DNA of 64,000 nt from an uncultured Gammaproteobacteria bacterium. GTDB taxonomy: Bacteria > Patescibacteriota > Patescibacteriia > SG8-24. Below, piece by piece: positions 33,836 to 59,443 of this stretch (positions are counted from its first letter, which is position 1; every line of letters starts with the position of its first letter). The stretch is from assembly GCA_964486995.1 (NCBI GenBank), contig CAZAOV010000002.1, forward strand, positions 26,559 to 90,558. The letters are read 5' to 3'. The position numbers and the translations under genes are program-made. Below the pieces are notes generated by a model that saw only the letters and a list, made by a program, of their open reading frames with translations, did no database searches and was not told where the DNA came from.

Positions 33836-33837
33836 AT

Positions 33838-35448
33838 TCAGCGGCGGTCGTACATATCGAGCAAAAATAATCCGGAAATGGACTGGAAGGCGTGGCGCCA
33901 TTGTTCGGAATCAAACCAAGTGTGCACCAACAGGTCGTCCGTTCGCATTCCGTAGAGCCAAAAACGCTCGGGCCGATTTTGCAGCTGATCGATTCGGTCA
34001 AGCTGGAGATGTGCTTGGGCCTTAGTAGTCTTGGGCACCCGGAACTGAGATTCGTTTTCAATTAAACCCAGCCTCGTTCGGGCACGCATGAAATCATGCC
34101 CAAAATATCCGGCTGGCACCAGGGTTTCCACCGGAATTTCCGGCCGTAGGTAGTGCGATATGTTCGAGCGCGCAAAATTATATGAAACGACCACCACGTC
34201 TCCGGGACGATAATTATCATTGATGTACTGCGCCACCTCGGAAACACGATGTTTGTAGTTCCAGGTGGCATCATTCTGCATGACAAACGCCAGATACGGC
34301 ATCAGCGTCACCACAAATAACGCCAACAACAGCTTGCCCCAGCGACCGGACAGGCGATTCGCTACCATGGCGACGAAAATCATCAGCGGAACGGTAATCG
34401 GCAGCATGTGACGGAAAATGCGGTCGGTGTAGGCCAACGACGCAGGCGATGCGATAAAAAATATTATCGGCACCACGGACAGAAAAGCCAAGAACAGCCA
34501 GCGCTGTCGGTCACGGGATATTTTCCTGGTCGTACGTCCGGCGATCGGCGCCAGCACGATTAGCGTCGCGAACACTAACGCAATCTTAAAAATAGCGGCG
34601 GCTAAAATCTGAATCCGCGGGACGTACTCGGTCCACGACAGCCACACAATCCGATCCAGCGACATATCGAGCACGCCCGGCTCACGAAGCGTGGAATCGT
34701 TGCGGGCCAGACCGAAGATGTCCCAATTGCCTAACATCAGTTTATGCAGAAAGGGATTGAGCCATGGGGCGAACACCAAGAAAATCACGGCGTGCGTCAA
34801 AAACCATTGCATCAAGTATTTGGAGCATTTTTTGTTCGTCCGCAAATCGTTCAATAGCCACCACAAAGAAACGGCGGCGATAGTGAACATAAAAGAGTAG
34901 TGCAGATACAACCCGGCCGCAGCGGACAAAATATAGAGAGCCAACCAGCCCTTGTTCCGCGAAGACATGAACTCCCAGACCGCCCACATGACTAGAACGG
35001 CAAATAATGTGTACATGGCGTACGGGCGGGCCTCTTGTCCGTATTCGACCTGAATCGGCAGGATTGCCACCAAAAACGCGGTGATTAAGCCGACCTTGGT
35101 GCTCTTACTCACGCTGCGCCCAAAATAGAACGCCGTTACCACAATCGCCAAACTGAAAATCAGCGACAACGAGCGAGTGGCCGCTTCGCTAGAACCAAAC
35201 CAGGCCGCCCACGGCTTCACTAATATATAGTAGTGCGGCGGGTGAATTTCGATGGCGGCGATGTACTGAACCATCTCCCCCAATCCGGCGAATCCGGTAT
35301 AGATATCGAGGCTCAAAATCTCGTCACCCCAGTACGGTTCCGTGCCAATATTTGCGAGACGCAAAATCGCCGCCAGCAAAACGATGCCGGCCAGAATCCA
35401 TGCTGGTGATATTTTTTCTCTCTTGTGTCTAAATAATCGTTTAAGCAT
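33838..35448 (-). CDS. GT-C membrane glycosyltransferase (PMT/ArnT-like), paralog B
   Basis: Homologous to paralog A along its full length (DEILSLD, YLHYSF). The start MLKRLF was chosen by alignment with paralog A. Confidence 0.65.
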   Translation of the reverse strand: MLKRLFRHKREKISPAWILAGIVLLAAILRLANIGTEPYWGDEILSLDIYTGFAGLGEMVQYIAAIEIHPPHYYILVKPWAAWFGSSEAATRSLSLIFSLAIVVTAFYFGRSVSKSTKVGLITAFLVAILPIQVEYGQEARPYAMYTLFAVLVMWAVWEFMSSRNKGWLALYILSAAAGLYLHYSFMFTIAAVSLWWLLNDLRTNKKCSKYLMQWFLTHAVIFLVFAPWLNPFLHKLMLGNWDIFGLARNDSTLREPGVLDMSLDRIVWLSWTEYVPRIQILAAAIFKIALVFATLIVLAPIAGRTTRKISRDRQRWLFLAFLSVVPIIFFIASPASLAYTDRIFRHMLPITVPLMIFVAMVANRLSGRWGKLLLALFVVTLMPYLAFVMQNDATWNYKHRVSEVAQYINDNYRPGDVVVVSYNFARSNISHYLRPEIPVETLVPAGYFGHDFMRARTRLGLIENESQFRVPKTTKAQAHLQLDRIDQLQNRPERFWLYGMRTDDLLVHTWFDSEQWRHAFQSISGLFLLDMYDRR

Positions 35449-35573
35449 ATTGACACTATATAACAAAGTGCGGATGTACGGGAGTTCGGGGGTGTGGAAC
35501 AACACTTAGGTGCTGAGATTCCGCGGGGCATGATTTGGAAGAAAAAATCCATCCGCTAGGATGGATCGGTTTT

Positions 35574-41683: not shown

Positions 41684-42520
41684 TTACCCGACCGCAGCAG
41701 CGCGCACGTTTACTTCGCTGCCGAGCCATTCCTGGGCGAGCGCGACGAATTGTTCTGTGCGGTCGCTGACATAGAACTGATGTTGGCCACGGGTACGCAA
41801 CGAAGCGTCTAGTTCTGGATGCTGCTGAAGATACGCGGCGAGTTCAGCCACTGCATCATGCGCCGGGTCAACCAGGGTGACGCTCTCCCCCATCGCCTGA
41901 CCGATAACGGTACGCAGGAACGGATAGTGCGTACAGCCCAGAATAAGCGTATCTATACGTGATAGTTGTAGCGGGCGCAAGTATTCTCTGGCAATCGACG
42001 CGGTTTCTTTGCGGGCGGCCCAACCTTCCTCAACGAGTGGTACAAACAATGGACAGGGCGTCGAAAAAACTTTGGTCCGCGGAGCGAGTCGTTTCATCTT
42101 GCGTTCATAGATGCCGGAACCGACCGTGCCACGAGTGCCGACCACACCAACATGCCCTTTGGTGACCGCAGCCGCGCGCTTTACCGCTGGCATTACTACC
42201 TCGAACACCGGCACGTCAACGTTGCGACGCAAGGTCTCGACGCCGTGCGCGGACACGGTGTTGCAGGCGACCATGATAACTTTTGCGCCTTTGTCGAGCA
42301 AAAACTCCGCATTCTCCAGCGCATATTTTTGAATCAGCTCGCGGCTCTTGATGCCATAGGGAGTGCGTGCAGTATCGCCAAAATAAACCACCCGGCGACC
42401 GGGTAGTTGTCTTAGCACTTCCTTAGCGACGGTCAGGCCTCCGAGACCTGAGTCAAATATACCTATCATATTGCGCTGAAATTGCCCTTCAATAATGGCA
42501 GTTTGGGAGCTAAGAATCAA
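41684..42520 (-). CDS. murI: glutamate racemase
   Basis: IGIFDSGLGGLTV and GCTHYP motifs. Confidence 0.9.
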   Translation of the reverse strand: MILSSQTAIIEGQFQRNMIGIFDSGLGGLTVAKEVLRQLPGRRVVYFGDTARTPYGIKSRELIQKYALENAEFLLDKGAKVIMVACNTVSAHGVETLRRNVDVPVFEVVMPAVKRAAAVTKGHVGVVGTRGTVGSGIYERKMKRLAPRTKVFSTPCPLFVPLVEEGWAARKETASIAREYLRPLQLSRIDTLILGCTHYPFLRTVIGQAMGESVTLVDPAHDAVAELAAYLQQHPELDASLRTRGQHQFYVSDRTEQFVALAQEWLGSEVNVRAAAVG

Positions 42521-42689: not shown

Positions 42690-43750
42690 CTAGCGCGTTT
42701 CTGGAACATTTATGGTCATATGACCATAAATGGAAGCAAAAAGAGGTGCGACAAGTGCGGCAAACCCATGCAGCGATGGGGTCAAACCAAGACCGGAAAG
42801 CAGCGCTGGAAATGCAGACCCTGTTCCAAGACCGGCACGAGAGTCAGGCACGATGTGACCGCCGGACATAGGCAACGCCTGTTTCTGAACTGGGTGCGCA
42901 GCAAGGAGTCCGTGGCCGACACGGCAAGGAAGGCAGGTGTGACCGCACGAACCGCGCACCGCTGGTTCGCCCCGTTCTGGAAAGCCCCGCCGCGGACCTG
43001 CAGCCGAATCGCTGCACGCATCCTCGTTGTCGACGCGGTGTCGGTCGTGAAGCACGAGGCGGTGGCGCTGCTCGCCGGCGACCCCGGACCTCCGGAACCG
43101 GTCGGCTGGGAGTTCGCCGCGCGCGAGTGCCACGAGTCCTGGCGGTCGTTCTTCCTCGGCCTTCGCAGCCGCGGGGCGGACCCCGGGTTCGTGGTCTGCG
43201 ACGGCCAGAAGGGCCTGCTCAAGGCGGCCCGGGAAGTCTTTCCACATGCGGCGGTCCAGCGTTGCGTTGTCCACGTGCACCGCCTGGCCATGGCCTGGCT
43301 GATGCGAAAACCGAAAACCGCGGCGGGCCGCGAGCTGCGGCCAATCGTCTCCGCGCTGCTCCTGGTGCGCACGCCGGAAGATCAGGACACATGGCTGGAG
43401 TCACTGCGCTCGCGGGAAATCAGGCACGCCGAGTTCCTGAAGGAGAGGACGTACGGCGAGAACGGATGGTGGTACACGCACCGGAAGCTGAGGGCGGTCA
43501 GGTCGCTGCTGCGCAACGCCGCACCCGACCTGTTCCGCTACGTCGACGACCCTCCGGTGCCGAGGACCTCGAACCACGTCGAGGGAGGGCTGAACAGCCG
43601 AATCAAGGAGCTGCTGCGCTCGCATCGGGGGATATCAAAAAGCCAGCGCATGGCGCTGGTGTGCTGGTACCTGGAGTCGAGACGGGAGGAGAAAAAACCC
43701 CACACGAAATGTCCGATAGCTCGTTTTGCCATACGCTTCTTATGATGCAC
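42690..43750 (+). mobile_element. IS1-family insertion sequence (limits approximate), anomalously GC-rich
   Basis: Segment of about 68-70% GC inside roughly 52% GC DNA. Encodes a fused zinc-ribbon/HTH/DDE transposase. Terminal inverted repeats could not be defined by eye. Confidence 0.55.
42720..43745 (+). CDS. IS1-family transposase (fused InsAB-like single ORF)
   Basis: N-terminal CxxC...CxxC zinc ribbon and HTH. FVVCDGQKGL matches the IS1 MTDGWPLY region. SNHVEGGLNSRIKELLRSHRGISKS matches the IS1 [24 protein letters not shown] region. Confidence 0.7.
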   Translation: MTINGSKKRCDKCGKPMQRWGQTKTGKQRWKCRPCSKTGTRVRHDVTAGHRQRLFLNWVRSKESVADTARKAGVTARTAHRWFAPFWKAPPRTCSRIAARILVVDAVSVVKHEAVALLAGDPGPPEPVGWEFAARECHESWRSFFLGLRSRGADPGFVVCDGQKGLLKAAREVFPHAAVQRCVVHVHRLAMAWLMRKPKTAAGRELRPIVSALLLVRTPEDQDTWLESLRSREIRHAEFLKERTYGENGWWYTHRKLRAVRSLLRNAAPDLFRYVDDPPVPRTSNHVEGGLNSRIKELLRSHRGISKSQRMALVCWYLESRREEKKPHTKCPIARFAIRFL

Positions 43751-44278: not shown

Positions 44279-45652
44279 TTATCCACGAATGATTTTTAGC
44301 AGTTCATCGCGATGTATTTTCATATTTTCCTCATCCTTGGCTTCCAGATTCAGTCGGATTTTAGGTTCCGTATTCGATGCCCGAACACTGAACCACCAGT
44401 CCCCTTCCGGCTGTTCTGGATTCATGAATTCCATGCGTACACCGTCGATTCTAATCACGTTTGAGGCCTCACCTGCATACTTTTCCTCGAGCGCCTTAAA
44501 TACTGCTTCTTTATCTGCGACTTCGGAGTTAATCTCACCAGAATGAAAATACCGTAGAAGGGGCGCCACGAGTTCAGATAACGGCTTCCCGGTCTCGGAA
44601 ATAAGCTGCATAAACAACAACATCACATAATCAGAGGATTCCGCACCACAAAACTCACGGAAATAAAAATGATTAGACAGCTCACCAGCAAAAACAGCGT
44701 TAACTTCGCGCATATGAGGCTTAATCAAGCCATGTCCAACGCGAGTCATAACCGGCTTTCCTCCAGCCGCCTCAATCTCCTCAACCGTGGCCATGCTCTC
44801 GCGAACATCATACAAAACAGCTTCACCCTGATTATCACGCAACACTTCGCTAGCAATCAAAGCCGTAATAAAATCGCCGCGCACGGTCTTGCCTTTCTCA
44901 TCGACCAATCCGATTCGATCTCCGTCACCATCAAAAGCCACGCCCAAATCCGCACCAGAATCAACCACTTTCAGCTTTAGTGCATCTAACGTCTTCTCCT
45001 TGAGCGGATTTGCCTCGTGGTTCGGAAACGTGCCGTCCAGCTCCCGGTAAAGCACCTCGTATTCACAGCCGGCAATCTTTGACAGCACGTCATCGATAAT
45101 AATTCCCTCCATGCCATTTCCGGTATCTACCACCACTTTCATCGGTTTTATTTTGCTCACGTCAGCGTCGGAAAACAGCTTCTTTAAATAATCATCTCGG
45201 ATATTTTTTTCGCTCAATGAGCCATTATTTTCAACCGGCTCATATGGACCGGCCAACGCCAAATCGCGTATGTCATCCATGCCATTTGAACCACCAATCG
45301 GCAACGCATCACCGAGACAAATCTTTACGCCATTATATTCGCTCGGGTTGTGCGAGGCTGTCACCATCACCCCGGCTTCGTGCTCCGCATACTGGCAAGC
45401 CGCAAAATAAATCATCGGCGTGGTAACCATGCCAACATCAACCACATCGCTTCCCTGCGACATGATTCCTTTGGCGAGTGCTTCGAACAGCTCCGGCGTA
45501 GTCGAGCGCATGTCTTTTCCGACCGCAATCACCTTGGCATCGGTGAATTTAACGATTGCTTGGCCAATGCGATAAGCACCATCAGTATCAAGCTGCTCGG
45601 GAGATAAACCTCGGATATCGTAGGCTTTAAAGATAGAACCGTCTAAAGGCAT
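44279..45652 (-). CDS. phosphomannomutase/phosphoglucomutase (alpha-D-phosphohexomutase family)
   Basis: Active-site loop TASHNPSEYNGVK, metal-binding DGDGDR, and sugar-binding loop. Confidence 0.9.
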   Translation of the reverse strand: MPLDGSIFKAYDIRGLSPEQLDTDGAYRIGQAIVKFTDAKVIAVGKDMRSTTPELFEALAKGIMSQGSDVVDVGMVTTPMIYFAACQYAEHEAGVMVTASHNPSEYNGVKICLGDALPIGGSNGMDDIRDLALAGPYEPVENNGSLSEKNIRDDYLKKLFSDADVSKIKPMKVVVDTGNGMEGIIIDDVLSKIAGCEYEVLYRELDGTFPNHEANPLKEKTLDALKLKVVDSGADLGVAFDGDGDRIGLVDEKGKTVRGDFITALIASEVLRDNQGEAVLYDVRESMATVEEIEAAGGKPVMTRVGHGLIKPHMREVNAVFAGELSNHFYFREFCGAESSDYVMLLFMQLISETGKPLSELVAPLLRYFHSGEINSEVADKEAVFKALEEKYAGEASNVIRIDGVRMEFMNPEQPEGDWWFSVRASNTEPKIRLNLEAKDEENMKIHRDELLKIIRG

Positions 45653-47707: not shown

Positions 47708-50329
47708 ATGCATACCGATATCCTCGATAAATTCACCGCACACCTCAAGAATGCGCTGGCGAAATCATATTCTTTAGCGGCAGAACTGTCCTCTACCGGT
47801 ATCCATCCGGAACACCTGCTATTGTCGCTCCTTATGCAGCGAGGAAGCATGGGTGGCGAATTGCTCCGTCAGTCCAATTTAAGCGCCGAAGAGCTGCGTC
47901 AGATGCTCATCGCGGTGAATCAGTTCACCCCGGGCGACGGTAAGGAAGGTGCCCCCAAACTATCGGCAGAATCAAAGCGAGCCATCGAGAAGGCGGTTTT
48001 AGTCGCCAATACGCACGAGCATCGCTACGTCGGTACCGAACATTTATTGTTCGGTATTTTAGAAATCGGCTCGCCGGTCGTTGATGCAATCCTAACTGAC
48101 CAAGAAGTGGATATCGTCTGGCTCCGTGATCAAATTATCAATACTTTAAACAGCACTTCCAAGTTCCCGGAAATCACCGAAACGTTCGAGTCTGGTGTGG
48201 TGCCTGGACAGGACATCAGCACGGAAGATCAGGCGATTGCGCTCGAAGCGAGCGAAGCCACGCAAGTCGGCAGCAAAACCCCAGCATTGGATTTCTTTGC
48301 CGTGGACCTAACCGACCCCAAGGTCCAAGAGGATATAGATCCGGTTATCGGCCGGAGCACGGAAATCAATCGGCTGGTTCAGGTACTGTCCCGACGCACC
48401 AAGAACAATCCCGTATTGCTCGGTGAACCAGGCGTTGGCAAGACGGCCATCGTGGAAGGTCTGGCCAAAAAGATCGTGCAGGGTGATGTGCCGGAAGTGC
48501 TGGCTGACAAACGTATCCTGGCGCTGGATCTCGGAATGATGATCGCCGGAACAATTTATCGCGGTGAATTTGAAGGTCGCATCAAACAGATTACCGATGA
48601 GGTAAAGGCTAATCCGAACGTGATTGTTTTCATTGACGAAATGCACAACATCATGGGTGCCGGTTCGACCAACGGCTCTATGGATGCGGCAAACCTCCTG
48701 AAACCTGCGCTGGCTCGAGGCTACATGCACTGCATAGGTGCGACTACTATTTCTGAATTTAAAAAACACATTGAGTCCGACGGAGCGCTGGAGCGTCGAT
48801 TTCAATCCATAATGGTCGACCAGCCCAGCCTCGAAGCCACGGTAGAAATTCTAAAAGGCTTACGAGACGGCTATGAAAAACATCACGAGGTTACCATTGC
48901 TGATGACGCAATTCATGCCGCAGTCGAACTTTCTGACCGCTATCTCACCGAGCGTTTCCTTCCGGATAAGGCGATTGATCTTATTGACGAGGCGTCCGCG
49001 CGTGCGCGCGTTTCCCGCGGTGATGACTCCAAGGTCAAGCAGTTATCTCGTCTGGAATCGGAAATCGAAAAAGTACGCGCCCGCAAACAAGGTGCGGTAC
49101 ACGGCGAGAACTTCATCGAGGCATTGGAACTTAAAGGTGAAGAAGGCCGCCTAGTTAAACAACTATCCAAGACCAAAGAGGGTAACCGCAACCGAAAGCG
49201 AAGCAGAGCCTCCACAATCACACGCAATCATATCGCAGAAATTATCGCGCAGGCCACCGGAATTCCAATGAATGAACTCGTGTCAGAAGAGAGGGTCCGA
49301 CTGCTAAATCTGGAAACACATCTTGGCGCCAAAATTCATGGCCAAGACGAGGCCATCAATCAAGTAGCCGAAATGGTACGTCGTGCCAAAGCCGGCATGG
49401 CGCATCCGCAACGTCCGTTGGCATCGTTCATGTTCCTTGGTCCGTCTGGTGTAGGAAAGACCGAGCTGGCCAAGGTGCTCGGCGCGGAAATCTTCCATGA
49501 TCCAGAAGCTGTGGTTCGTATCGACATGTCCGAATTCTCTGAAGGATTCAATATGTCCAAGCTGGTTGGTGCTCCGGCAGGCTATGTCGGCTACCGCGAA
49601 GAGACCAAGCTGACCGACTTGGTGAAACGCAAACCTCACTCGTTGGTGCTATTTGACGAAATAGAAAAGGCCCATCCGGATGTGCATAATTTGCTTCTGC
49701 AGATTTTGGAAGATGGCCACATCACCGATGCCACAGGAAGAAAAATCAACTTCAAAAATACTATCGTAATAATGACTTCCAACGTCGGTGCCGCGCAGCT
49801 TCAAGCCTCTGGAATCGGCTTCTCGGCCGACGGCCATGACGCCAATCTACACATGGAAGACATTAGCTCAACCATCAATAGCGAGTTGCAGACCTCATTC
49901 CGGCCGGAATTCCTAAACCGTATCGACAAGGTGGTGGTGTTCCGCTCGCTCAACAAGAAAGATTTGGAGTCTATCGCCGGCCTGCACTTCAGTCAGTTGG
50001 CTGACCGCCTGGCCACCGACCACAGCATCATCCTAGAGGCCGACGACAGCGCCATTAAATTCCTAGCCGATAAAAGCTGGGATCCGTCATTCGGCGCGCG
50101 CACAATACGACGTCAACTGCAAGAGCATGTTGAGAGCCCGCTAGCTAAGTCATTACTCGCCGAAGACCACGGCCCCGGCGACAAAATAAAGATTACGGTC
50201 AAGAAGGGCAAGATTGATTTCAGCAAGAGCAAGAAAACCGCGAGTAAGACCGCCAGGAAGACTACGTCATCGGGCAAAGAGCCAAATGCCTCGAAATCAA
50301 AGAAGAAAGCAAATGCCAATGCCAAGTAG
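47708..50329 (+). CDS. clpC: ATP-dependent Clp protease ATP-binding subunit, ClpC-like (two AAA+ modules)
   Basis: Two Clp_N repeats at the N-terminus. Walker A sites [15 protein letters not shown] and [15 protein letters not shown]. Short inter-domain linker, so ClpC/ClpA-type rather than ClpB. Confidence 0.85.
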
Positions 50330-51020
50330 CAATTCAGTACAGCCGGAGAGCGACTGGGGGCGGCAACTTGAGCAGGAACGCCTCAAGAATTTAGTGCACC
50401 AAAAAAATATAGGAGCGCCAGTAAAGACGGTAGATTCCGTGACGGATTTTGGCTCAGCCGAATCGATAGATAACTCGCGAAACTGGGCGCAGGAACTAGA
50501 GCGAAAGCGGATGAAATTCGCCCTAAACAGCGGCATGGCGCTACCGGGACCCGGAGCGGCCGCCGGCACTGCATCAAAGAGTGCATCTTCCGGCGGAACG
50601 GGTCTCCCCGCATCGATCAATCCGCAACAGATGATGCAACAGCATGGTTTTTTGGGAGGTCTTATCAAGCTCTTCGGTGCCATGAGCGAACAGGCCACAA
50701 AACCAGTACTAAAGCAGCTAATTGCTTGGCACTGGGGATTGCTTCCGACAATAAAAGGAACGTTAATCTCATTACTCCTTTCCGGCCCGGCACTTAACGC
50801 TTGGCTGTTCTACGCACATATCTGGCGTAAACCCGGCCTCTGCAAATTCGACCCCTTTGATTTACTCGCCGTGCTAGTCTACGACTTAATAGTTTTACTG
50901 CTGGTTGGCGTAATATTGGTGGCGATTGTTCTACTCAGCGTAACCGCCATATGTTTTGCCACCCCGTCAGAATGTCCGTCTTTCGTGGTTGAGGCAGCCA
51001 GCGGAGTCATTAATTTCTAA
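50313..51020 (+). CDS. hypothetical membrane protein (two C-terminal TM helices)
   Basis: The start MPMPSS was chosen to avoid overlap with clpC. Gly/Ala/Ser-rich middle region and hydrophobic C-terminus. Confidence 0.4.
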   Translation: MPMPSSNSVQPESDWGRQLEQERLKNLVHQKNIGAPVKTVDSVTDFGSAESIDNSRNWAQELERKRMKFALNSGMALPGPGAAAGTASKSASSGGTGLPASINPQQMMQQHGFLGGLIKLFGAMSEQATKPVLKQLIAWHWGLLPTIKGTLISLLLSGPALNAWLFYAHIWRKPGLCKFDPFDLLAVLVYDLIVLLLVGVILVAIVLLSVTAICFATPSECPSFVVEAASGVINF

Positions 51021-51042: not shown

Positions 51043-52260
51043 ATGTTTAAAAGAATCGGTCTTATAGTTCTGTTTATCGCGGTAACCTTCGCCATCGGTT
51101 TAGGACTGTACTTTATGATCTTTGGGTTGCCCGAAGCAGAGCCAGAAATTCCGCCGGAGGAAATCGTTAACGTTCCACCAACCGGTTTGGAACCGTCGGA
51201 ACCAGCCAAACCGACTGTTCCGCCCGAGGAGCAGGAGGTGGGCCTGCCCCAGCCGCCGGCAGTTTCGCCGATTGCTGATGGTGGCATCACACAAGTTACG
51301 CCAGTTACGCCCGCTTCGACCAGAAGCGCCATGCTAAACGATTCCGGAGAGTTGAGCTACTACAACCGTAACGACGGAAAGTTCTATCGCGTTAAAGACG
51401 ACGGAACGATTATGTCGCTGTCGGATGAAGTTTTCTATAACGTGAACGAAGCCACTTTCAATCCAAGCGGCGATAGCGCTATCCTGGAATATCCAGACGG
51501 CTCTAACATCTACTACGATTTCACCACCGATACCCAAGTCACCCTGCCCCAGCATTGGGAAGATTTCGATTTCAGCCCACAAGGCAATCAAATTGCCGCC
51601 AAGAGTGTGGGCTTGGACCCGTCGAACAGGTTCGTTATCGTATCTAATCCAGACGGCTCGGGTGCAAAGCCAGTCCAAGAGATGGGCCAGAACCAAGATG
51701 AAGTTATCGTTGACTGGTCACCAAACAATCAGATAGTAGCCACGGCCACCACCGGACGAAAGCTGGGCGTCGATCGGCACGAAGTGTATTTCATCGGTCA
51801 GCACCACGAAAACTTCCGCTCCCTGATTGTAGAGGGTTTGAATTTCCAGCCGAAATGGTCACCGTCTGGAGAGCAGCTCCTGTACTCGTCAGCAAGCAGC
51901 ACCTCGGATTGGAAACCGCAGCTTTGGATTGTTGACGGGTCTGGTGATGACATCGGTCTGAACCGTCGTTCCATCAGTGTGGAAACCTGGGCCGAAAAAT
52001 GTACGTTCGCTGACCAAGAAACTCTGTACTGCGCCGTACCGCGCGAACTACCGCGCGGCGCCGGTCTGCAACCACGTATTGCAGACAACACTCCGGACGA
52101 TATCGTGAAAATTGATATGGTGACTGGTCTGCAGACTTCCGTGGCAATTCCAGAAGGCTCACATACCATCGACTCCATCATGCTGACTCCGGACGGAAAA
52201 AATCTCTATTTCACCGACAAGGGCACCGGTCAGCTCAATCAGATAAAATTAAGACCGTAA
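51043..52260 (+). CDS. membrane-anchored TolB-like beta-propeller protein
   Basis: Signal anchor, Pro-rich linker (PEAEPEIPPEE...), then repeated WSP/DGS blade-like segments typical of TolB/PD40 propellers. Confidence 0.55.
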   Translation: MFKRIGLIVLFIAVTFAIGLGLYFMIFGLPEAEPEIPPEEIVNVPPTGLEPSEPAKPTVPPEEQEVGLPQPPAVSPIADGGITQVTPVTPASTRSAMLNDSGELSYYNRNDGKFYRVKDDGTIMSLSDEVFYNVNEATFNPSGDSAILEYPDGSNIYYDFTTDTQVTLPQHWEDFDFSPQGNQIAAKSVGLDPSNRFVIVSNPDGSGAKPVQEMGQNQDEVIVDWSPNNQIVATATTGRKLGVDRHEVYFIGQHHENFRSLIVEGLNFQPKWSPSGEQLLYSSASSTSDWKPQLWIVDGSGDDIGLNRRSISVETWAEKCTFADQETLYCAVPRELPRGAGLQPRIADNTPDDIVKIDMVTGLQTSVAIPEGSHTIDSIMLTPDGKNLYFTDKGTGQLNQIKLRP

Positions 52261-52268
52261 CTTTTTCG

Positions 52269-52339
52269 GTAGCTGCACAGCTTGTCTGCGCCCGTCAATA
52301 ATCTTAAAGTGCTGGGCGGAGACAAGCTCCGCAGCTACG
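52269..52339. repeat. family-B palindromic repeat element, copy 4
   Basis: Arms ggtagctgcacagcttgtctgcgccc and gggcggagacaagctccgcagctac. Located 9 nt upstream of the DsbA-like start. Confidence 0.6.
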
Positions 52340-52347
52340 ACGATACT

Positions 52348-53010
52348 ATGAAGCGTTCCCCCCTGTTCCTTGGCATCCTAACGCTGGCAGCAATCCTGCT
52401 GCTCATGGTGTATGGCATTTCAGCCATCGCACCGCTGTTTGAGGTAAAAGAAGAGGAGCCGAAAGCAGAACAGCCGCAAATAGCGACACCCACTATTGAT
52501 TTCGGCAACCCGAGCTTCGGCCCAAGTAACGCTGACCTGACCATTGTGGTATATGGCGACTATCAGTGCCCGTCGTGTGCCGGTTTTGATGCCACACTGG
52601 TGAAAGTGTTATCTGACTTCCCAAACGTCAGGCTGGTCTGGAAGGATATTCCAAACACCAGTCGTTACGCCGAATCCAGGGACGCGGCCATCGCCGGACG
52701 CTGCGCCAAAGAACAGGGCGCTTTCTGGGAGTATCATGATATTTTAATGGCTAATCGAGATTCGCTAACCGAAACCAACTATCCGATATTCGCGATGCAA
52801 CTTGGATTAGATTCAGAACAGTTCCTCTCTTGCCTGCAAGACCGCACACCAGACGCACTGATTCAACGAGACATCGATGAAGCTATCGCTATCGGCGTCA
52901 ACGCCTCACCTTATGTGTTTATTGGCAATCAACCCTACGCCGGCAGTATGCCCGAAGAACGTCTGCGAACAATAATCGAGTCCGAACTGGATCGTCTCGG
53001 AACTCCATAA
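52348..53010 (+). CDS. DsbA-like thiol:disulfide oxidoreductase (thioredoxin fold), membrane-anchored
   Basis: CPSC active-site motif after a signal anchor, with a thioredoxin-like core. Confidence 0.7.
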   Translation: MKRSPLFLGILTLAAILLLMVYGISAIAPLFEVKEEEPKAEQPQIATPTIDFGNPSFGPSNADLTIVVYGDYQCPSCAGFDATLVKVLSDFPNVRLVWKDIPNTSRYAESRDAAIAGRCAKEQGAFWEYHDILMANRDSLTETNYPIFAMQLGLDSEQFLSCLQDRTPDALIQRDIDEAIAIGVNASPYVFIGNQPYAGSMPEERLRTIIESELDRLGTP

Positions 53011-53026
53011 AAAACAAGCCGACCAC

Positions 53027-53800
53027 ATGCCGGACAAGAAAAACAAAACGAAAAAATGGACCGGCGCTGGAGCGACCGCTTTGGTGGCTTTTTATTTACT
53101 TATGCCTCTCTCCGCAAACGCGTTTTGTTTGATAACCGAAGGCACCAGCTGCGGCCCTGAATGTGAAGAAGCGGAAGATTGCGGGTTCTTTGAAGACAGT
53201 GCGACAGGACGTTGTGAAATGACCGTTGATGCGGAAACTGAAACATCGGATCTGTTCTGTCGCGACGCCGCAGAGTTGGTGGAAGACGCCGCGGTGGCGG
53301 AGGCGGCCGCCGAGGCAACCGACCAAGCAATACAAGAAAGACGAGAGCGAGAGGCACGAATCGCTGGTCAGGACGCCCTGCCAGACCTTTCGGTGAGCAT
53401 TCCGGGCGTTCAGTTTTCTGAAATCAGGAAGACAAAGTCCGATGATGGGATGTACTACATCATAGAAATACCCTGGATGGCTGACTATATTATCGGCGTA
53501 TATCGCTATTCGGTTTTCATCGGCAGTATTCTGTCCGTAGTAATGATAATGATCGGCGGAATTCAATGGCTTACAGCCGGCGGCGACGCCAGCCGAGTGA
53601 CTAACGCCAAAAACCGAATCAACAATGCCGTAGTTGGGCTAGTGCTCATATTGGGATCGTTCTTGGTACTAAATACCATTAACCCGAGGCTGACCATGCT
53701 AAATCCACTACAGGTAAAAGTGGTAAACGAGGAACGCTACAACGTTCGTGAGGTACTGCAGACGACCACCGAAGACACCGGCAACCCGCTAGAGCTATAA
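53027..53800 (+). CDS. secreted Cys-rich protein with a VirB2/TrbC-like (T4SS-pilin-like) double-TM hairpin domain (split form, part 1)
   Basis: Signal peptide, a 9-Cys N-terminal module, then the conserved IPWMADYIIGVYRYSVFIGS...GGIQWLTAGGDASRV...VGLVLILGSFLVLNTINP two-helix domain shared with the next two fused paralogs. Confidence 0.55.
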   Translation: MPDKKNKTKKWTGAGATALVAFYLLMPLSANAFCLITEGTSCGPECEEAEDCGFFEDSATGRCEMTVDAETETSDLFCRDAAELVEDAAVAEAAAEATDQAIQERREREARIAGQDALPDLSVSIPGVQFSEIRKTKSDDGMYYIIEIPWMADYIIGVYRYSVFIGSILSVVMIMIGGIQWLTAGGDASRVTNAKNRINNAVVGLVLILGSFLVLNTINPRLTMLNPLQVKVVNEERYNVREVLQTTTEDTGNPLEL

Positions 53801-53805
53801 ATAAT

Positions 53806-54768
53806 ATGCAGTTTATAAAGAAAAATCTCTACGCCATAGCAGTCGCGATTATCGTAGGCGTGTTTACTATCGTAATCTCGCTGTTGCCGCTAGTTCCCAC
53901 TTCCAACCCAACCCAATTTGACGTAGCCGAAGCCGAAGCCAGGTTAGCGACGCTGGTTTCTGACGTTGGTTCAGAAAACTATAATTGCCCTTTCGAGTCT
54001 GTAAATAACATCACTGTTGGGGTAAGGCATCCGCCACGCGTTAGCGGCCAGCGCACGCAGATTTTCGTTCGTGAAGTGCTGAATATAATTCCAGCGGACT
54101 CCGACGTCCGTGAAAAGATCCTTCTGGTTGCTGACCTGGCGATTCGCTGTAAAGTATTTTTTGGCAGCTGCGGACGCTCGGCCGGCGCCGTTTATGCCTT
54201 AGCCGGCATCGGGGATGATGATGACCCGCCACCCACACCAAGAGAATCCAATTGTATGTTCTCAGAAGATGGCTGCAATCTAGATATCAGAAAAAAGAGA
54301 GTGCCTGAAACGGAAGAGGGTATGTATCTACGCGGCAATCTTTCGCGGATAATTATCGGGCAAAACTGCAACTCTCCAAGTGACTCCCGACGAAGAAATT
54401 GCTTCGATTCCGGACCGCAAGCCAAAAGACACGTTAGCGAGCAAATCAGTCGGTCTTTACAGAATTATCCAAACCGTTGGTCCGACCACCTAGAACCCGG
54501 TGACTGGCTGTATATCTATAACGGCAATTCAACACCCATCGGTTCACATAGCGTCATATTCCTGGGTTGGGAAAACGAGGCGCAGGGCTGGGCTTATATA
54601 TATGAAGGCAACCCGCGCTCATGGCTTGGCCGAGACCATACACCGGTAAACGAACGGCTTCAGGAAACTAGGGTTAGACTGAATCGAGCCTGCCTGAAAA
54701 GCGAGTGCGGCAATTGGTACCCGATTGTTCTGGTATATGACCCGGAATCAGCTGAAATGATTAATTAA
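53806..54768 (+). CDS. membrane-anchored NlpC/P60-CHAP superfamily cysteine-peptidase-like protein (split form, part 2)
   Basis: FFGSCGRSAGAVYALAGI (catalytic-Cys helix), then LEPGDWLYIYNGNSTPIGSHSVIFLGW, which resembles the PGDLVFF...HVGIY pattern. Confidence 0.5.
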   Translation: MQFIKKNLYAIAVAIIVGVFTIVISLLPLVPTSNPTQFDVAEAEARLATLVSDVGSENYNCPFESVNNITVGVRHPPRVSGQRTQIFVREVLNIIPADSDVREKILLVADLAIRCKVFFGSCGRSAGAVYALAGIGDDDDPPPTPRESNCMFSEDGCNLDIRKKRVPETEEGMYLRGNLSRIIIGQNCNSPSDSRRRNCFDSGPQAKRHVSEQISRSLQNYPNRWSDHLEPGDWLYIYNGNSTPIGSHSVIFLGWENEAQGWAYIYEGNPRSWLGRDHTPVNERLQETRVRLNRACLKSECGNWYPIVLVYDPESAEMIN

Positions 54769-54771
54769 CAT

Positions 54772-56226
54772 ATGAATTCATCGCGCACGCGAAAAAATAA
54801 TAATATTCGCCGAATACAAGTTTTTGGTGTCTTGCTTTTGGCCGTGGTAGCGCTCTGGCCAGGCGCCATGCTGGCGGCAGACTGTAGTATCGGTGAAAAC
54901 GACATATTTTGTGCGAGCTGCGAAGTGGGTGACCGTTGTGTCACCGACGGAACCGAACGTGGAACCTGCCAGGTTGTACCCGAAGGAACCGAAGACAGCA
55001 CCGTCTCCGAAGGCGTAGTGATTCGGGCCGGCAATAAAATCTGTACCAACAACGGCACTACGCCGGCCATGTTGCCCTCTTCCGGAGATGGCGATGGGGG
55101 TGGCAGCGGAAATGCTCCCAGCACACCAATCGGCCCGACGTTTGCCGTGAATATCCCCACGGTGCAGATTACGGGAACACAAACATCACAGACCGAAGAC
55201 GGGGAATATTATCAAGTAGACATCCCGTGGATTGCCGATTATATCACCGGCGTTTATCGCTATGCGGTGTTTTTTGGGAGCGTTTTAGCGGCCGTGCTAT
55301 TCATGCTTGCTGGCCTGCAATGGTTAACCGCGGGCGGCAACGCCAGCCGAGTAGGTGCGGCAAAAAAACGTATGGTGGATACCACCATCGGATTGGTGCT
55401 GATTCTCGGTACATTTCTAATTCTAAACACGGTCAATCCTGAATTAACTTCGCTGAGGCCGTTACGCGTAAAAACTGTTCCGCTAGATCCTCTAGAGGTG
55501 GAGATGCACTCGACTACTGTGGCCACAAGCGTTCCCGGCGACAGCACTTATGACGTTCGAAGCGACAGCGGGACGTACGTGGCGCAATATTTTAACGATT
55601 GCCCGTTCGACTTACCGGAATCGCTTAACACTCCGCCTAATTGCGAGGGTCGAAACACGTTTGCTCACCCCACTTGCCGTGAGCGGGTATTTTTCGAGCG
55701 AATTTACCCGATGCTTGAAGGTGACACCAGTCAAAAATACGTCATGGCCATGGAAGCAGCCTGGAAATGCCGAGTAAAGCTTGGTTCCTGCGGTCGTACC
55801 CTTTCAGATCTGGCAGAGTTAGCTCTTTCTGGCCCCAATGCTGAATGTCTACAGCAGGAAAACCGAGGACGTTTCCCGATTGGATGTATGGACACCTACC
55901 GAAGCCGCGCTCAAAACACCACTGTCCGCGGCTGGAATGAGCGCGAGGGAAAAACGAGCGCGGAAATCCTGGACATTCTTCGAACGGAAAATCCGGGATA
56001 TCCAGATAACCTAAACATCGGACCGGGTGCCATCGTCACGTACTACAACGGGAACCCTTCTGCTGGCGGAAGTCACCGTGTTTTTGTCGCCGGCTTCAAC
56101 GAGGAGACGGGCATGGCGCAGTTATTGGAAGGACAGGTCGGCTCACCGCCAACCAGTCGCGATGTATGCATGTCTAGCGTGTGCCGTAGGTATCCGCCAA
56201 TCGGTATTGTTTCATATTTGCGCTAA
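54772..56226 (+). CDS. fused Cys-rich / T4SS-pilin-like double-TM / NlpC-P60-CHAP-like protein (paralog 2)
   Basis: All three modules in one ORF: IPWIADYITGVYRYAVFFGS...LQWLTAGGNASRV, then KLGSCGRT and IVTYYNGNPSAGGSHRVFVAGF. Confidence 0.55.
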   Translation: MNSSRTRKNNNIRRIQVFGVLLLAVVALWPGAMLAADCSIGENDIFCASCEVGDRCVTDGTERGTCQVVPEGTEDSTVSEGVVIRAGNKICTNNGTTPAMLPSSGDGDGGGSGNAPSTPIGPTFAVNIPTVQITGTQTSQTEDGEYYQVDIPWIADYITGVYRYAVFFGSVLAAVLFMLAGLQWLTAGGNASRVGAAKKRMVDTTIGLVLILGTFLILNTVNPELTSLRPLRVKTVPLDPLEVEMHSTTVATSVPGDSTYDVRSDSGTYVAQYFNDCPFDLPESLNTPPNCEGRNTFAHPTCRERVFFERIYPMLEGDTSQKYVMAMEAAWKCRVKLGSCGRTLSDLAELALSGPNAECLQQENRGRFPIGCMDTYRSRAQNTTVRGWNEREGKTSAEILDILRTENPGYPDNLNIGPGAIVTYYNGNPSAGGSHRVFVAGFNEETGMAQLLEGQVGSPPTSRDVCMSSVCRRYPPIGIVSYLR

Positions 56227-57803
56227 TGACGATTCGACGAAATACAATTAGACGCACCCTGTCACTGTCGCTACTTTCGACAATGATTTTCGTGTTTGGA
56301 TCAGTTTTTCCGGTCCGGGCGGACGAGGAATTCATTCTTTCTACCGACGGTAAATGCTGCCCGAATCCGACGTATGACTGTTGCGAAGAGGAGAACCGCT
56401 GCTCGGGCACCGATTGTGGGCCCGAAGAGGTGTCTCCAGCTCCGGGCAGATGCTCCATCACCCGAGACGACAGAGATGCCGAAGTGGTGGGTGAACACAG
56501 CTCTTCATGTCTGACGGTCCAAGGCGAAGAGGTAGAAGGAGAGGAAACGACGCAAGACGCAATTCCGGAAAGCACCGCCCCCGGACCGCCGATAGAACCC
56601 GAGTTGGCTATCAATATACCGACAGTGACTTTCTCCGATGTTCAAGTAACCGCCGGCGAGGGCTATAACTATATCGACATTCCTTGGCTAGCGGACTATA
56701 CGGCCGGAATCTACCGCTATGCGGTGTTTATTGGCAGTGTTTTTGCGGCAGTAATGTTTATGGTTGGCGGCCTACAGTGGCTGACAGCCGGCGGCAACAC
56801 TTCACGAGTCAGCGCAGCGAAGACTAGGATACGCGATTCAATCGTCGGTCTGGTGCTGATACTCGGTTCTTATCTTCTGCTCAACACCATTAACCCCGGA
56901 CTCACTTCCATGCAGCCCTTGCGGGTGAAGGTGGTGCAAAAAGACCCCCTGCGAGTCAGCATGATGACCACTACGGCTAACACTTCTGACCCGGACTCAT
57001 CTAGTGGCGGCGGTGACCGCAGCTTTGGCGGGCGCATGGAGCCGCTCTCCGGCTCATATACGCGAGGAGTTACCGATTGTCCGCTTGACCTGGAAGCGGA
57101 ACCGGCCACGGTTTTACCCAACAGACCCGGAAGATCCAGGGAATTCGCCCAACAAATTGGTGATGTTTATGCCGGCAGTAATGTGCGAGATAAAGTTCTG
57201 CGGATTGCGGAGGCAACGGTTGCTTGCGAAATATATTTTGGTAGTTGCGGCCGTACTGGAGGTACTATTTATGCGCTAGCTGGCGTTTCGGTCGGTGCCG
57301 ACAATACGGGCGATGATCCTTCATGCATTTGGGCCGACAGTGACGCTTGTGGTGGCACTTGGGGTGCGATTGGCGGGCAAGCTAACGTGAACTGGCCTCA
57401 GCTGCGGACTTACCGTACCTGTACCGGCTCCGGCGACAGTCGTAGCTGCAACCGAACCGCTTCCGAGGCAACTGAAGTAGCTCGGGACGATATTACCGGC
57501 GCAGAAGACTACCCTGATTCGCTGGCCAATATCTTGGAGCCGGGTGACATAATGATTATTTATAACGGCAATAGTAGTCCAGCCGGTTCGCACACCATGA
57601 TTTTTATGGGTTGGGATACCGGTGGTTGGGCTCATGTTATAGACGGTTCAGCTCAGCGCTTGGCCGGCTACAGCCGCTATTGCATCAAGGAATCCTGCGG
57701 AAATCAACGTAAACCTCTGCTCTGGGTGCACAAACCGGTCTGCGACAACTTAGGCCGCGGACATCGCTGCGAAGACGACTACGGAAATACCCCAACGGAA
57801 TAA
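56226..57803 (+). CDS. fused Cys-rich / T4SS-pilin-like double-TM / NlpC-P60-CHAP-like protein (paralog 3)
   Basis: IPWLADYTAGIYRYAVFIGS...LQWLTAGGNTSRV, then YFGSCGRTGGTIYALAGV and PGDIMIIYNGNSSPAGSHTMIFMGW. The start overlaps the previous stop. Confidence 0.55.
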   Translation: MTIRRNTIRRTLSLSLLSTMIFVFGSVFPVRADEEFILSTDGKCCPNPTYDCCEEENRCSGTDCGPEEVSPAPGRCSITRDDRDAEVVGEHSSSCLTVQGEEVEGEETTQDAIPESTAPGPPIEPELAINIPTVTFSDVQVTAGEGYNYIDIPWLADYTAGIYRYAVFIGSVFAAVMFMVGGLQWLTAGGNTSRVSAAKTRIRDSIVGLVLILGSYLLLNTINPGLTSMQPLRVKVVQKDPLRVSMMTTTANTSDPDSSSGGGDRSFGGRMEPLSGSYTRGVTDCPLDLEAEPATVLPNRPGRSREFAQQIGDVYAGSNVRDKVLRIAEATVACEIYFGSCGRTGGTIYALAGVSVGADNTGDDPSCIWADSDACGGTWGAIGGQANVNWPQLRTYRTCTGSGDSRSCNRTASEATEVARDDITGAEDYPDSLANILEPGDIMIIYNGNSSPAGSHTMIFMGWDTGGWAHVIDGSAQRLAGYSRYCIKESCGNQRKPLLWVHKPVCDNLGRGHRCEDDYGNTPTE

Positions 57804-58075: not shown

Positions 58076-59443
58076 ATGAGAACCGCTACTCAGATATTCG
58101 TTTGTTCTAAGTGTGATGCGCAGTCGCCGAAATGGACTGGGCAGTGTTTGGAGTGCGGGGGTTGGGGGACGGTAGCGGCAGCGGCACAACAGGCGAGGGG
58201 CGATGAGTCAGGAGCAGAGAGAGGAGCAATTCAGGCTGCCCCCGCAAAAGTTGAGGCGTTCAGCTCCATCAAGACAGAAACCACTCAACGTTCAGAGATT
58301 GGCATTGATGAAATTGATCGGGTGTTTGGCGGTGGAGTTGTGCCGGGGTCGGTGACGCTGATTGGTGGTGAGCCGGGTATTGGTAAGTCGACGATTTGCC
58401 TGCAGATCGCGGGGCGAGTGGCCATTCAGGGCAAGGTGGTTTACGCGTCGGGTGAAGAATCCGGTTCGCAGGTGAAGGGGCGCGCGCAGCGCATTGGCGC
58501 ACCCGCAGACAACCTGCTGTTTCTCGGTAAGACCGAAGTGGAAACAATTATTGCTACTTTGCATCGCGAAAAACCGCTGCTAGCGGTGATTGATTCGGTG
58601 CAGATGCTGCGCTCAGCCGAGATTCCGGCCGAGACCGGTGCAGTGAGTACTATCCGCGGTGCCACAGCCAAGCTCGTGGCTTATGCCAAGTCGTCAGACA
58701 CCCCCCTGCTGCTGGTCGGACACGTGACCAAAGACGGTAATGTGGCCGGACCAAAAACCTTAGAACACCTGGTTGACGCCGTGTTATCTTTCGAAGGGGA
58801 GCGAACCGGACAGCTGAGATTGCTGCGCGTGCTCAAGAACCGCTACGGCTCCACCGACGAGACCGGACTGTTTGAGATGACCGGTGAAGGGCTCAAAGAA
58901 ATCAAAAATCCTTCTGCTTATATGCTGGATGAGCGCGGCGACGCGGCATCTGGGAATGTTGTTTCGTGCATTTTGGAAGGGACGCGTCCTGTACTGGTCG
59001 ACATTCAGGCTCTAGTCACGAAAACTGCGTTCGGCTATCCGACGCGGCGCGCCTCGGGCATGGATCAATCGCGGTTAGAGATGCTAATCGCAGTGCTGGC
59101 CGCGCGCGGCGGAATCGACCTTAGTCAGCACGATGTTTACGTGAACATCGTCGGCGGATTAAAACTAAAAGATCCGTCAATAGATTTAGCGGTTTTGATG
59201 GCGCTTACTTCAGCTCGCAAAGATGAACCGTTCCGCGACATCGCTGTCTGGGGCGAGGTCGGCTTGGGCGGAGAGGTGCGGCCGGTACCGTCAACCGACC
59301 GCCGTATCACTGAAGCCACCAAACTAGGAATCAAAAAAGCGGTCGCCTCTCTGCCAAGAAAGAAAACCGCCATCAAACTTAGTGATGATATTGAGGTCAA
59401 AGATGTTAGGAATGTTAGAGATGCGTTGGGATTGTTGAAGTAG
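58076..59443 (+). CDS. radA: DNA repair protein RadA/Sms
   Basis: N-terminal C4 zinc finger (CSKCDAQSPKWTGQCLECGGWGT), Walker A GGEPGIGKST, KNRYG motif, and a Lon-like C-terminal domain. Confidence 0.9.
   Translation: MRTATQIFVCSKCDAQSPKWTGQCLECGGWGTVAAAAQQARGDESGAERGAIQAAPAKVEAFSSIKTETTQRSEIGIDEIDRVFGGGVVPGSVTLIGGEPGIGKSTICLQIAGRVAIQGKVVYASGEESGSQVKGRAQRIGAPADNLLFLGKTEVETIIATLHREKPLLAVIDSVQMLRSAEIPAETGAVSTIRGATAKLVAYAKSSDTPLLLVGHVTKDGNVAGPKTLEHLVDAVLSFEGERTGQLRLLRVLKNRYGSTDETGLFEMTGEGLKEIKNPSAYMLDERGDAASGNVVSCILEGTRPVLVDIQALVTKTAFGYPTRRASGMDQSRLEMLIAVLAARGGIDLSQHDVYVNIVGGLKLKDPSIDLAVLMALTSARKDEPFRDIAVWGEVGLGGEVRPVPSTDRRITEATKLGIKKAVASLPRKKTAIKLSDDIEVKDVRNVRDALGLLK

Follow-up and report, generated by a model that had tools for sequence, protein, structure and literature searches.

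An operon around a VirB2-like hairpin

What does a pilin-like membrane hairpin do in the middle of proteins that begin with a cysteine-rich head and end in a predicted papain-fold domain? The question is raised by an operon on contig CAZAOV010000002.1, of which a stretch of 64,000 nucleotides (the window) was analyzed. On the + strand of this window, between 50.3 and 57.8 kb, seven closely spaced genes follow one another with intergenic gaps of -1 to 22 nt. The part from 51043 to 57803 comprises a PD40-type propeller-like gene, a DsbA-like gene, and three paralogous units. All open reading frames (ORFs) listed in the original prediction lie where it had placed them, and its observation of a tandem array is confirmed.

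We propose, with a probability of roughly 0.6, that the operon makes surface-exposed, membrane-tethered cell-wall hydrolases mounted on a VirB2-like hairpin, and that it is a vertically inherited, chromosomal system of the ultrasmall Patescibacteria (candidate phyla radiation, CPR). The units comprise the following genes:

53027-53800, + strand: unit 1a, 257 aa; signal peptide, 6-Cys head, and VirB2-like hairpin (PF18895, alignment, Cys positions, hydropathy)
53806-54768, + strand: unit 1b, 320 aa; signal-anchor helix (residues 8-26) and stand-alone NlpC/P60-CHAP-like C-terminal domain (C-domain)
54772-56226, + strand: unit 2, 484 aa; signal peptide, 6-Cys head, hairpin, and C-domain
56226-57803, + strand: unit 3, 525 aa; signal peptide, 8-Cys head, hairpin, and C-domain (PF18895, alignments)

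Three units of one architecture

The 257-, 484-, and 525-aa proteins share a common order of elements, namely a signal-peptide-like N-terminus, a Cys-rich head, a two-helix module of approximately 120 residues, and a TTxxxT linker. The hairpin modules are located at residues ~119-240 of unit 1a (53381-53746), ~121-240 of unit 2 (55132-55491), and ~126-245 of unit 3 (56601-56960), and are mutually 55-62% identical; for hairpins of paralogues in one genome the range is 52-63%. A second domain recurs in the C-terminal halves of the two largest proteins (484 and 525 aa) and in the 320-aa protein. Here, identity amounts to 24-31%, and the shared motifs are CP, F, C..FGSCGR, PGD....YNGN.....GSH, G.A...EG, and C....C; the signatures GSCGR[ST] and PGD..YNGN..GSH, quoted earlier for these domains, are thus present. 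Unit 1 is the same architecture divided between two genes: unit 1a, with a signal peptide at residues ~1-32, stops shortly past the conserved TTxxxT linker, and the enzyme gene, unit 1b, has gained an N-terminal transmembrane (TM) helix of its own.

That the array is an assembly duplication, or consists of functionless pseudogene remnants, is a practically negligible alternative. Taken by themselves, the two ORFs of unit 1 could resemble a frameshifted fusion; however, the relatives P0002-P0007 and the loci L001, L005, and L016 show the split form as well, the enzyme gene again supplying an N-terminal TM helix of its own, and the predicted catalytic Cys and His and the structural Cys are near-invariant in the 141 family representatives considered below. 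The longest DNA-level repeat among the units does not exceed 28 nt. Separate orthologues exist for the 320-aa protein (P0002-P0005), the 484-aa protein (P0011, 61% identity), and the 525-aa protein (P0008, 71-75%), and metagenome contig L016 carries the whole array in the same gene order. The triplication is therefore old and real rather than an assembly artefact.

The heads are the fastest-diverging part of the units, with identities of 20-31% between paralogues and 30-55% between orthologues. They contain 6, 6, and 8 cysteines in units 1, 2, and 3, respectively, and the corresponding C-domains 9, 9, and 11. The count of 9-12 cysteines per head that had been given earlier is thus too high; the larger totals (9-19) take in the C-domains or the whole proteins. 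In units 1 and 2 they are built on a common 6-Cys scaffold, C-x7-8-C-x2-3-C-x5-C-x9-10-C-...-C, and these two heads are thus divergent but not unrelated.

With 62-63% identity, the hairpin of unit 2 is marginally closer to the hairpins of unit 3 and P0008 than to that of its own orthologue P0011 (58%), the enzyme domain of which reaches 71%. This similarity of hairpins within one genome may reflect co-evolution or gene conversion, and the identities hint faintly at paralogous hairpins that co-evolve.

Evidence for the hairpin

The T4SS_pilin model PF18895 (T4SS, type IV secretion system) scores 32.7 bits in unit 1a and 28.9 bits in unit 3, the gathering cutoff being 26.6. Unit 2 remains under this cutoff, both as a whole protein (19.2 bits) and when the hairpin alone is searched (22.9 bits), but its hairpin shares 55-62% identity with those of units 1 and 3. 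All 20 hairpins sampled from the family match the model (best E 1e-10). TrbC/VirB2 (PF04956) yields weak matches in three of these 20 (best E 2.6e-4) and none in the three hairpins of the window. The likeness to VirB2-like pilins that had been noticed at the outset is borne out by PF18895.

Hydropathy reveals an N-terminal segment and two further hydrophobic segments per unit. In an AlphaFold2 model of the 484-aa protein, based on an alignment of 82 sequences, the mean predicted local distance difference test score (pLDDT) is 80.8. The two helices, 153-185 and 191-221, are modelled at pLDDT >94 and are framed by short strands on the outer side (137-140, 147-151, and 231-234). The hairpin itself is hence backed by hidden Markov model (HMM) matches, hydropathy, and model.

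The C-terminal domain: a predicted wall hydrolase

Which enzyme is attached to the hairpin? In the structure predicted for the 320-aa protein (pLDDT 82, predicted template modelling score 0.80), the C-domain adopts a papain-like alpha+beta fold that resembles solved members of the NlpC/P60-CHAP-amidase group. Its structural neighbours include Acd24020, CwlO, MepS, LytE, SagA, and RipB, furthermore the CHAP endolysins LysGH15, PlyC, and Ly7917 as well as the Tn916-type conjugative wall hydrolases 4hpe and 9ubf. Almost all top-ranking neighbours are peptidoglycan hydrolases. Predicted catalytic residues are Cys122 (the nucleophile, 54169-54171), His248 (54547-54549), and Glu267 in unit 1b, Cys340 (55789-55791) and His435 (56074-56076) in unit 2, and Cys341 (57246-57248) and His456 (57591-57593) in unit 3.

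Conservation of these residues was assessed in 141 C-domain representatives clustered at 50% identity. Cys122, which opens helix 122-132, is found in 139 of the 141, and His248, which opens strand 248-257, in all of them. The third polar residue, closing the next strand, is Q, E, N, or D in 120/141 and mostly Gln. Just ahead of the first core strand (234-237) lies a 'GD' (Gly232 in 141/141, Asp233 in 137/141), a motif characteristic of the NlpC/P60-CHAP-amidase cluster (PMC10318531). Four more cysteines, Cys61, Cys115, Cys296, and Cys301, are near-invariant. Two relatives, P0066 and P0075, are natural circular permutants, in which the His half (HMM positions 119-230) precedes the Cys half (3-95) and the permuted C-domain still lies downstream of a hairpin and a Cys-rich head; circular permutation is a known habit of the papain-like NlpC/P60 superfamily (PMC10318531). 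Judged from the model, the C-domain probably belongs to the NlpC/P60-CHAP-amidase cluster, from whose other members it has diverged strongly, and has a predicted Cys-His-(Gln/Glu/Asn/Asp) triad, and the family would represent an unannotated, disulfide-rich NlpC/P60-CHAP branch that is missed by current HMM libraries.

Several results weigh against this assignment. Foldseek against the PDB returned no match under E 0.1. Neither Pfam nor NCBIfam matched the C-domains of the window, Pfam on 31 C-domain members gave a lone CHAP match at E 0.1, and a 31-sequence profile found no match at E<=10 among all PDB sequences. In hhalign against E. coli MepS the probability was 2%, which is not significant. 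The sole stretch aligned there, not significant alone, pairs the GD and the invariant His of the family with the GD and His145 of MepS, respectively; we take His145 to be the catalytic His. Furthermore, papain-like folds also occur in proteases, transglutaminases, acyltransferases, and deamidases. The NlpC/P60-CHAP likeness claimed in the original prediction is thus retained on the strength of predicted fold, conserved Cys and His, and GD motif, and finds no counterpart in Pfam, PDB-profile, or hhalign matches.

Alternatively, the papain-fold C-domain might have protein or lipid as its substrate instead of the wall, be it as a pilin-maturing or self-cleaving peptidase, a transglutaminase- or sortase-like wall cross-linker, or an LRAT-like phospholipase/acyltransferase taking host lipids. 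The TTxxxT linker lies exactly at the split of unit 1, where processing might take place, de novo synthesis of fatty acids is absent from Patescibacteria (PMC10633639; PMC11665869), and permuted NlpC/P60 members have been tied to lipid binding (reference 29 in PMC10318531). We consider such an activity very unlikely in view of the peptidoglycan hydrolases that dominate the structural neighbours, the GD motif typical of the NlpC/P60-CHAP-amidase cluster, and the VanY/M15 peptidoglycan peptidases that are the other partners of the same hairpin. Moreover, apart from the two permutants, Cys precedes His in the canonical order, unlike in LRAT-type enzymes. An LRAT-type lipid enzyme was rejected as the leading reading on account of this domain order and the structural neighbours.

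Distribution and gene order in relatives

Relatives of the fusion proteins were collected in several ways. An exhaustive HMMER search was run with a profile that included the hairpin, so that its 38,747 matches at E<=1e-3 are mostly PF18895 hairpins and not fusions; 383 clusters lie below 1e-30. Hairpin and C-domain are fused in 147 of the best 150 representatives, i.e., in at least 147 clusters at 50% identity, and nine of the proteins examined are C-domains that stand alone. Cys-rich heads (6-30 Cys) are present in roughly half of the fusions, the others having a short N-terminus only. Word-indexed homologue searches returned 7-10 relatives each and missed the paralogues within the window itself. 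Related loci were obtained by exact protein look-up (L001-L005), by a DNA pattern in GTDB genomes (L006, L010, and L014), and by a metagenome scan (L016-L018). The degenerate DNA pattern L-x-PGD-x4-YNGNS hit nine stretches, three of which were real, and a genome-contig scan with a single protein found no related locus.

In the window, the operon is preceded by a ClpB-like gene (47708-50329) and followed, after a gap of 272 nt, by RadA (58076-59443). The remaining window is ordinary chromosome with DnaE, PheST, an RseP-like M50 protease, a phosphoglucomutase, LemA, HtpX, RecG, and two tRNAs. All 11 related loci have one or more long hairpin genes directly 3' of the DsbA-like gene and 5' of RadA, which confirms the neighbourhood conservation that was to be checked. 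Wherever the flanks sufficed, the long hairpin genes of L001-L006, L010, L014, and L016-L018 were preceded by ClpB, a variable membrane protein (X), the propeller gene, and DsbA, and followed by RadA and RecG, with one to four hairpin genes in the slot between DsbA and RadA. Close relatives bear Patescibacteria labels, among them MBU1028768.1, 'pilin [Patescibacteria group bacterium]', and one Candidatus Uhrbacteria contig.

Two labels differ: L006 (CAYOXC010000002.1) is filed as 'uncultured Gammaproteobacteria bacterium', and P0013 / L003 as 'Candidatus Binatia bacterium'. Since both show the Patescibacteria-type synteny of DsbA - hairpin fusion - RadA - RecG, their bins or taxonomy are probably mislabelled.

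The partners of the hairpin vary between loci. In L003 (7692-13280; GCA_035495855.1, DATJFD010000076.1) the DsbA-RadA slot is occupied by a four-gene array, in which the hairpin is combined, in this order, with VanY/M15 (VanY 44 bits, cutoff 25), an unassigned domain of ~240 aa, an NlpC/P60-like domain, and an unassigned domain of ~450 aa. Another hairpin-VanY fusion is P0015. The two unassigned domains of L003 have no match in Pfam or among PDB sequences, and the C-terminal parts of the hairpin proteins in L017, L018, L024, and L037 match nothing.

Apart from these loci, small PF18895 genes (112-330 aa) form arrays of up to 11 genes, as observed in L022, L026 (a 963-kb contig), L032, L035, L019-L021, L023, L025, L027-L031, L033, and L034. 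In four loci SBP_bac_1, an ABC-type (ATP-binding cassette) extracellular solute-binding protein, precedes the small array, and in two a DUF2079 membrane protein comes after it. The scan of large flanking ORFs revealed no VirB4-like ATPase; PF18895 arrays are therefore not always located beside T4SS genes.

Pilus, platform, or anchor

Could a T4SS whose genes lie at another place in the genome pull the hairpins out of the membrane and polymerize them? A VirB2-type filament would result, whose surface or tip shows the heads for host recognition and the hydrolases for breaching the host wall, and which would serve as a pilus for contact-dependent lysis or feeding. The hairpins are genuine PF18895 members, with additional TrbC/VirB2 matches in some relatives, and they are far better conserved than the enzymes. 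That the hairpin of unit 2 is slightly nearer to that of unit 3 than to that of its orthologue would be expected of co-assembling subunits, and the heads diverge fastest. In solved VirB2-type pili both termini are on the exterior, and the termini-out topology proposed below for the units would agree with this. Pilin arrays are, furthermore, essential to the epibiotic growth of S. epibionticum (PMC10633639; PMC12857230).

The neighbourhood, however, points away from such a pilus. Pfam detected no VirB4, VirB6, VirD4, or other T4SS family among the 27 largest ORFs of the window, and no T4SS genes are among the called genes within ~4-10 kb of the 11 related loci; instead, the locus sits in housekeeping synteny. 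A domain of 200-260 residues plus a head on every subunit would be hard to fit into the tight packing of a VirB2 filament, the characterized array pilins of Patescibacteria are small (~125-190 aa), and unit 1b uses a plain signal anchor with no hairpin at all. A decorated T4SS pilus is thus rather unlikely.

On the other hand, two observations speak against a hairpin that merely tethers the hydrolases. With 55-62% identity between paralogues, it is far more conserved than a plain anchor requires, and the ordered extracellular beta 'collar' of the predicted structure, together with this strong conservation, hints at assembly or partner binding. One step further, the VirB2-like hairpin might be a general assembly scaffold in Patescibacteria and not a plain pilin. 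Hairpins with variable Cys-rich recognition heads and varied wall-degrading enzymes (NlpC/P60-like, M15/VanY, and unassigned domains) would then co-assemble, by way of their co-evolving hairpins, into a hetero-oligomeric lytic structure that opens host or own peptidoglycan. This structure could be filamentous or a platform in the membrane, and a T4SS might or might not take part. We regard this as unlikely, although, if true, it would explain why pilin arrays are essential to the epibiotic lifestyle.

Proposed mode of action

In the favoured explanation of membrane-tethered hydrolases, each unit would be exported by the Sec pathway via its cleavable signal peptide. The head would lie outside, helix 1 would run inward, the short basic loop QWLTAGG..SRV..AKKR would be cytoplasmic, and helix 2 would run outward; in this topology, the C-domain would also come to lie outside, at the membrane surface. 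Unit 1 would reach the same arrangement from two polypeptides, the enzyme being held by its own signal-anchor helix. The adjacent DsbA-like enzyme would form the disulfides of the head (6-8 Cys) and of the C-domain, as suggested by adjacency and Cys pattern. The odd C-domain totals of 9, 9, and 11 would fit disulfides plus one free catalytic Cys. The C-domain would then cut peptidoglycan stem peptides or the amide bond between N-acetylmuramic acid (MurNAc) and L-Ala; peptidoglycan is the presumed substrate because of the fold neighbours and the relatives bearing VanY/M15 on the same hairpin.

In functional terms, the system may be regarded as a VirB2-like module fused to VirB1-like wall-opening enzymes. 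Its role is most likely local peptidoglycan cutting at the cell surface. Because of the housekeeping synteny, we favour the cell's own wall as the target, be it for growth, for division, or for making room for envelope machines, and the near-universal single-to-few copy number points in the same direction. Attack on a host wall is nearly as plausible and would be favoured by the variable heads and the epibiotic lifestyle. A VirB1-like role on behalf of a T4SS is not supported by the neighbourhood, since no T4SS ATPase was seen among the 27 largest ORFs of the window or in the flanks of the related loci. The link between pilin and enzyme itself gains from a Rosetta-stone argument, provided by the split unit 1 and the separate pilin and hydrolase genes of S. 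epibionticum.

Relation to known systems

VirB2-like pilin genes (PF04956/PF18895) are known to form tandem arrays of 2-11 members in Patescibacteria, with 441 such arrays in 383 assemblies (PMC12102498; PMC10633639; PMC12857230), and the six-gene array SEML1_0014-0019 of S. epibionticum is essential (PMC10633639; PMC12102498; PMC12857230). Patescibacteria possess the only monoderm T4SSs with pilins, and most such genomes lack a recognizable VirB1 (PMC10633639; PMC12102498; PMC12857230). According to reviews, the role of the T4SS in Patescibacteria is 'completely unknown' and a pilus in a monoderm speculative (PMC11665869, PMC12857230). The original prediction had found no described system of this kind. 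This holds for the pilin-hydrolase fusion, of which the searchable literature yielded no description. As VirB2-like tandem arrays in Patescibacteria are already published (PMC12102498, PMC10633639), the claim of complete novelty has to be tempered. One orthologue is simply named 'pilin' at NCBI.

The published arrays and our units have the Pfam family, the signal peptide with two-helix hairpin, the low identity between tandem paralogues, and the phylum in common. They differ in that the hairpin here forms the middle third of proteins of 257-525 aa with head and enzyme, in contrast to ~125-190 aa in the published cases (the S. epibionticum array pilin genes measure ~380-420 bp; PMC10633639), and in that our locus lies between DsbA and RadA instead of in a T4SS cluster, with no VirB4 seen nearby. 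At the head of the essential pilin cluster of S. epibionticum stand a lysozyme-lysozyme-cysteine-proteinase protein and a peptidase of M15B-like type (PMC10633639), so that peptidoglycan hydrolases are functionally linked to pilins there, too. The window locus thus holds the same parts (hairpin, predicted papain-fold hydrolase, and, in relatives, M15), but fused and at another place.

Similarity in another respect exists to the VirB1-type hydrolases of Gram-positive bacteria, i.e., TraG of pIP501 (SLT + CHAP), PrgK, and the Tn916 Orf14-like NlpC/P60 enzymes (4hpe, 9ubf). These are membrane-anchored and extracytoplasmic, have an NlpC/P60 or CHAP fold, and are thought to open the wall locally; the window units would share fold and anchoring. 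In contrast, similarity in sequence is undetectable, a VirB2-like hairpin takes the place of the single TM helix as anchor (unit 1b excepted), no conjugation or T4SS module lies alongside, and additional structural disulfides are predicted.

With NlpC/P60 (PF00877), CHAP (PF05257), and the DUF1460 amidase, the C-domain has in common the predicted fold, the Cys at a helix N-terminus, the His at the start of a strand, a polar third residue on the next strand, the GD motif, and the occurrence of circular permutants. Differences are its position below the detection of every HMM tried, Cys-rich insertions of ~100 residues between Cys helix and His strand, four conserved structural Cys, and a third residue that is mostly Gln.

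As a result, a PF18895 branch of at least 147 clusters (50% identity) emerges that is fused to predicted peptidoglycan-cutting enzymes and located in a DsbA-linked housekeeping locus, while in S. epibionticum enzymes of the same types are encoded separately, next to the small pilins. Taken together, these points tie the hairpin to wall cleavage in a concrete and testable way. A PF18895 match, as a caution, need not mean a pilus subunit. Based on predicted structures and synteny, the locus may open the function of Patescibacteria 'pilins' to testing. The combination of pilin and enzyme bears on what the 'pilin arrays' of this phylum do. The domain-level interpretation given earlier is supported.

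Genes preceding the units

Three further genes belong to the closely spaced group:

50313-51020, + strand: conserved syntenic membrane protein (start inferred at ATG 50313; mechanical ORF from TTG 50214)
51043-52260, + strand: membrane-anchored PD40-type beta-propeller-like protein, 405 aa (HMM, hydropathy)
52282-53010, + strand: membrane-anchored DsbA/MdbA/BdbD-type thiol-disulfide oxidoreductase, 242 aa (HMM, CPSC motif)

The DsbA-like protein matches Thioredoxin_4 with 76 bits (cutoff 23.2, E 5e-21) and DSBA with 45.4 bits (cutoff 25.6, E 1e-11), and carries the CPSC motif at codons 96-99 (52567-52578). Its nearest solved relatives are actinobacterial DsbA (4pwo/7unn) and BdbD of B. subtilis (3eu3), with PDB relatives down to E 2e-16. 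Together with the adjacency to the hairpin genes in 11 of 11 loci, this establishes the CPSC DsbA-like oxidoreductase recognized before. The mechanical ORF starts at TTG 52282, whereas homologues begin at the equivalent of ATG 52348 (MK.SP.F...), which gives ~220 aa and is probably the true start. With monoderm membrane DsbA of the MdbA/BdbD type, the protein shares the Thioredoxin_4/DSBA fold, the CxxC motif, and the N-terminal membrane anchor; it differs in that synteny ties it to a single substrate operon. A DsbB/VKOR partner did not turn up in the window, where no specific search for one was made. The linkage to DsbA persists in L002 and L004, where the hairpin proteins have no Cys-rich head, so that the conserved C-domain cysteines suffice as an explanation for it.

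The propeller-like protein has a TM helix at 8-26, backed by hydropathy, and a Pro-rich linker. One PD40 repeat is detected with 23.1 bits (cutoff 20.9). Orthologues of 403-419 aa lie immediately 5' of the DsbA-like gene in L001-L005, L010, L016, and L018. A true TolB was rejected: the equivalog model TIGR02800 demands 343.15 bits and reaches 20.9. There are no tol/pal genes near 51043-52260. The former label 'TolB-like' is hence reduced to PD40-type propeller-like, the signal being one weak PD40 repeat.

The membrane protein at 50313-51020 consists of an N-terminal 'WGRQLE' motif, a disordered middle, C-terminal TM helices, and a CxxxxxxC tail; it has no Pfam match. Counterparts of 217 to 918 aa are located between ClpB and the propeller gene in L001-L005 (L001 6546-7322; L002 7266-7919; L003 3775-5508; L004 4735-7491). 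Across this family, the W[GK]R.LE N-terminus and a C-x5-6-C tail are kept, and the low-complexity middle extends from ~100 to ~800 residues. The gene may be part of the same system as the units.

Other genes of the window

A Mutator/IS256-type transposase ORF (42720-43745, + strand; PF00872, E 1e-16) separates an Asp/Glu racemase gene (41684-42520) from the phosphoglucomutase gene (44279-45652). As the racemase and phosphoglucomutase genes adjoin in L001 and L005, it looks like a recent insertion sequence (IS) element. The 664-aa ORF at 9926-11920 (- strand) has no family match. A 723-aa protein (13001-15172, + strand) shows a PI3/PI4-kinase-like match of 26.6 bits, just below the cutoff of 27.1, which is unusual in a reduced-genome bacterium. 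Finally, two adjoining genes for PMT_2-type (dolichyl-phosphate-mannose-like) glycosyltransferases at 32219-35505 (- strand) may bear on envelope glycosylation.

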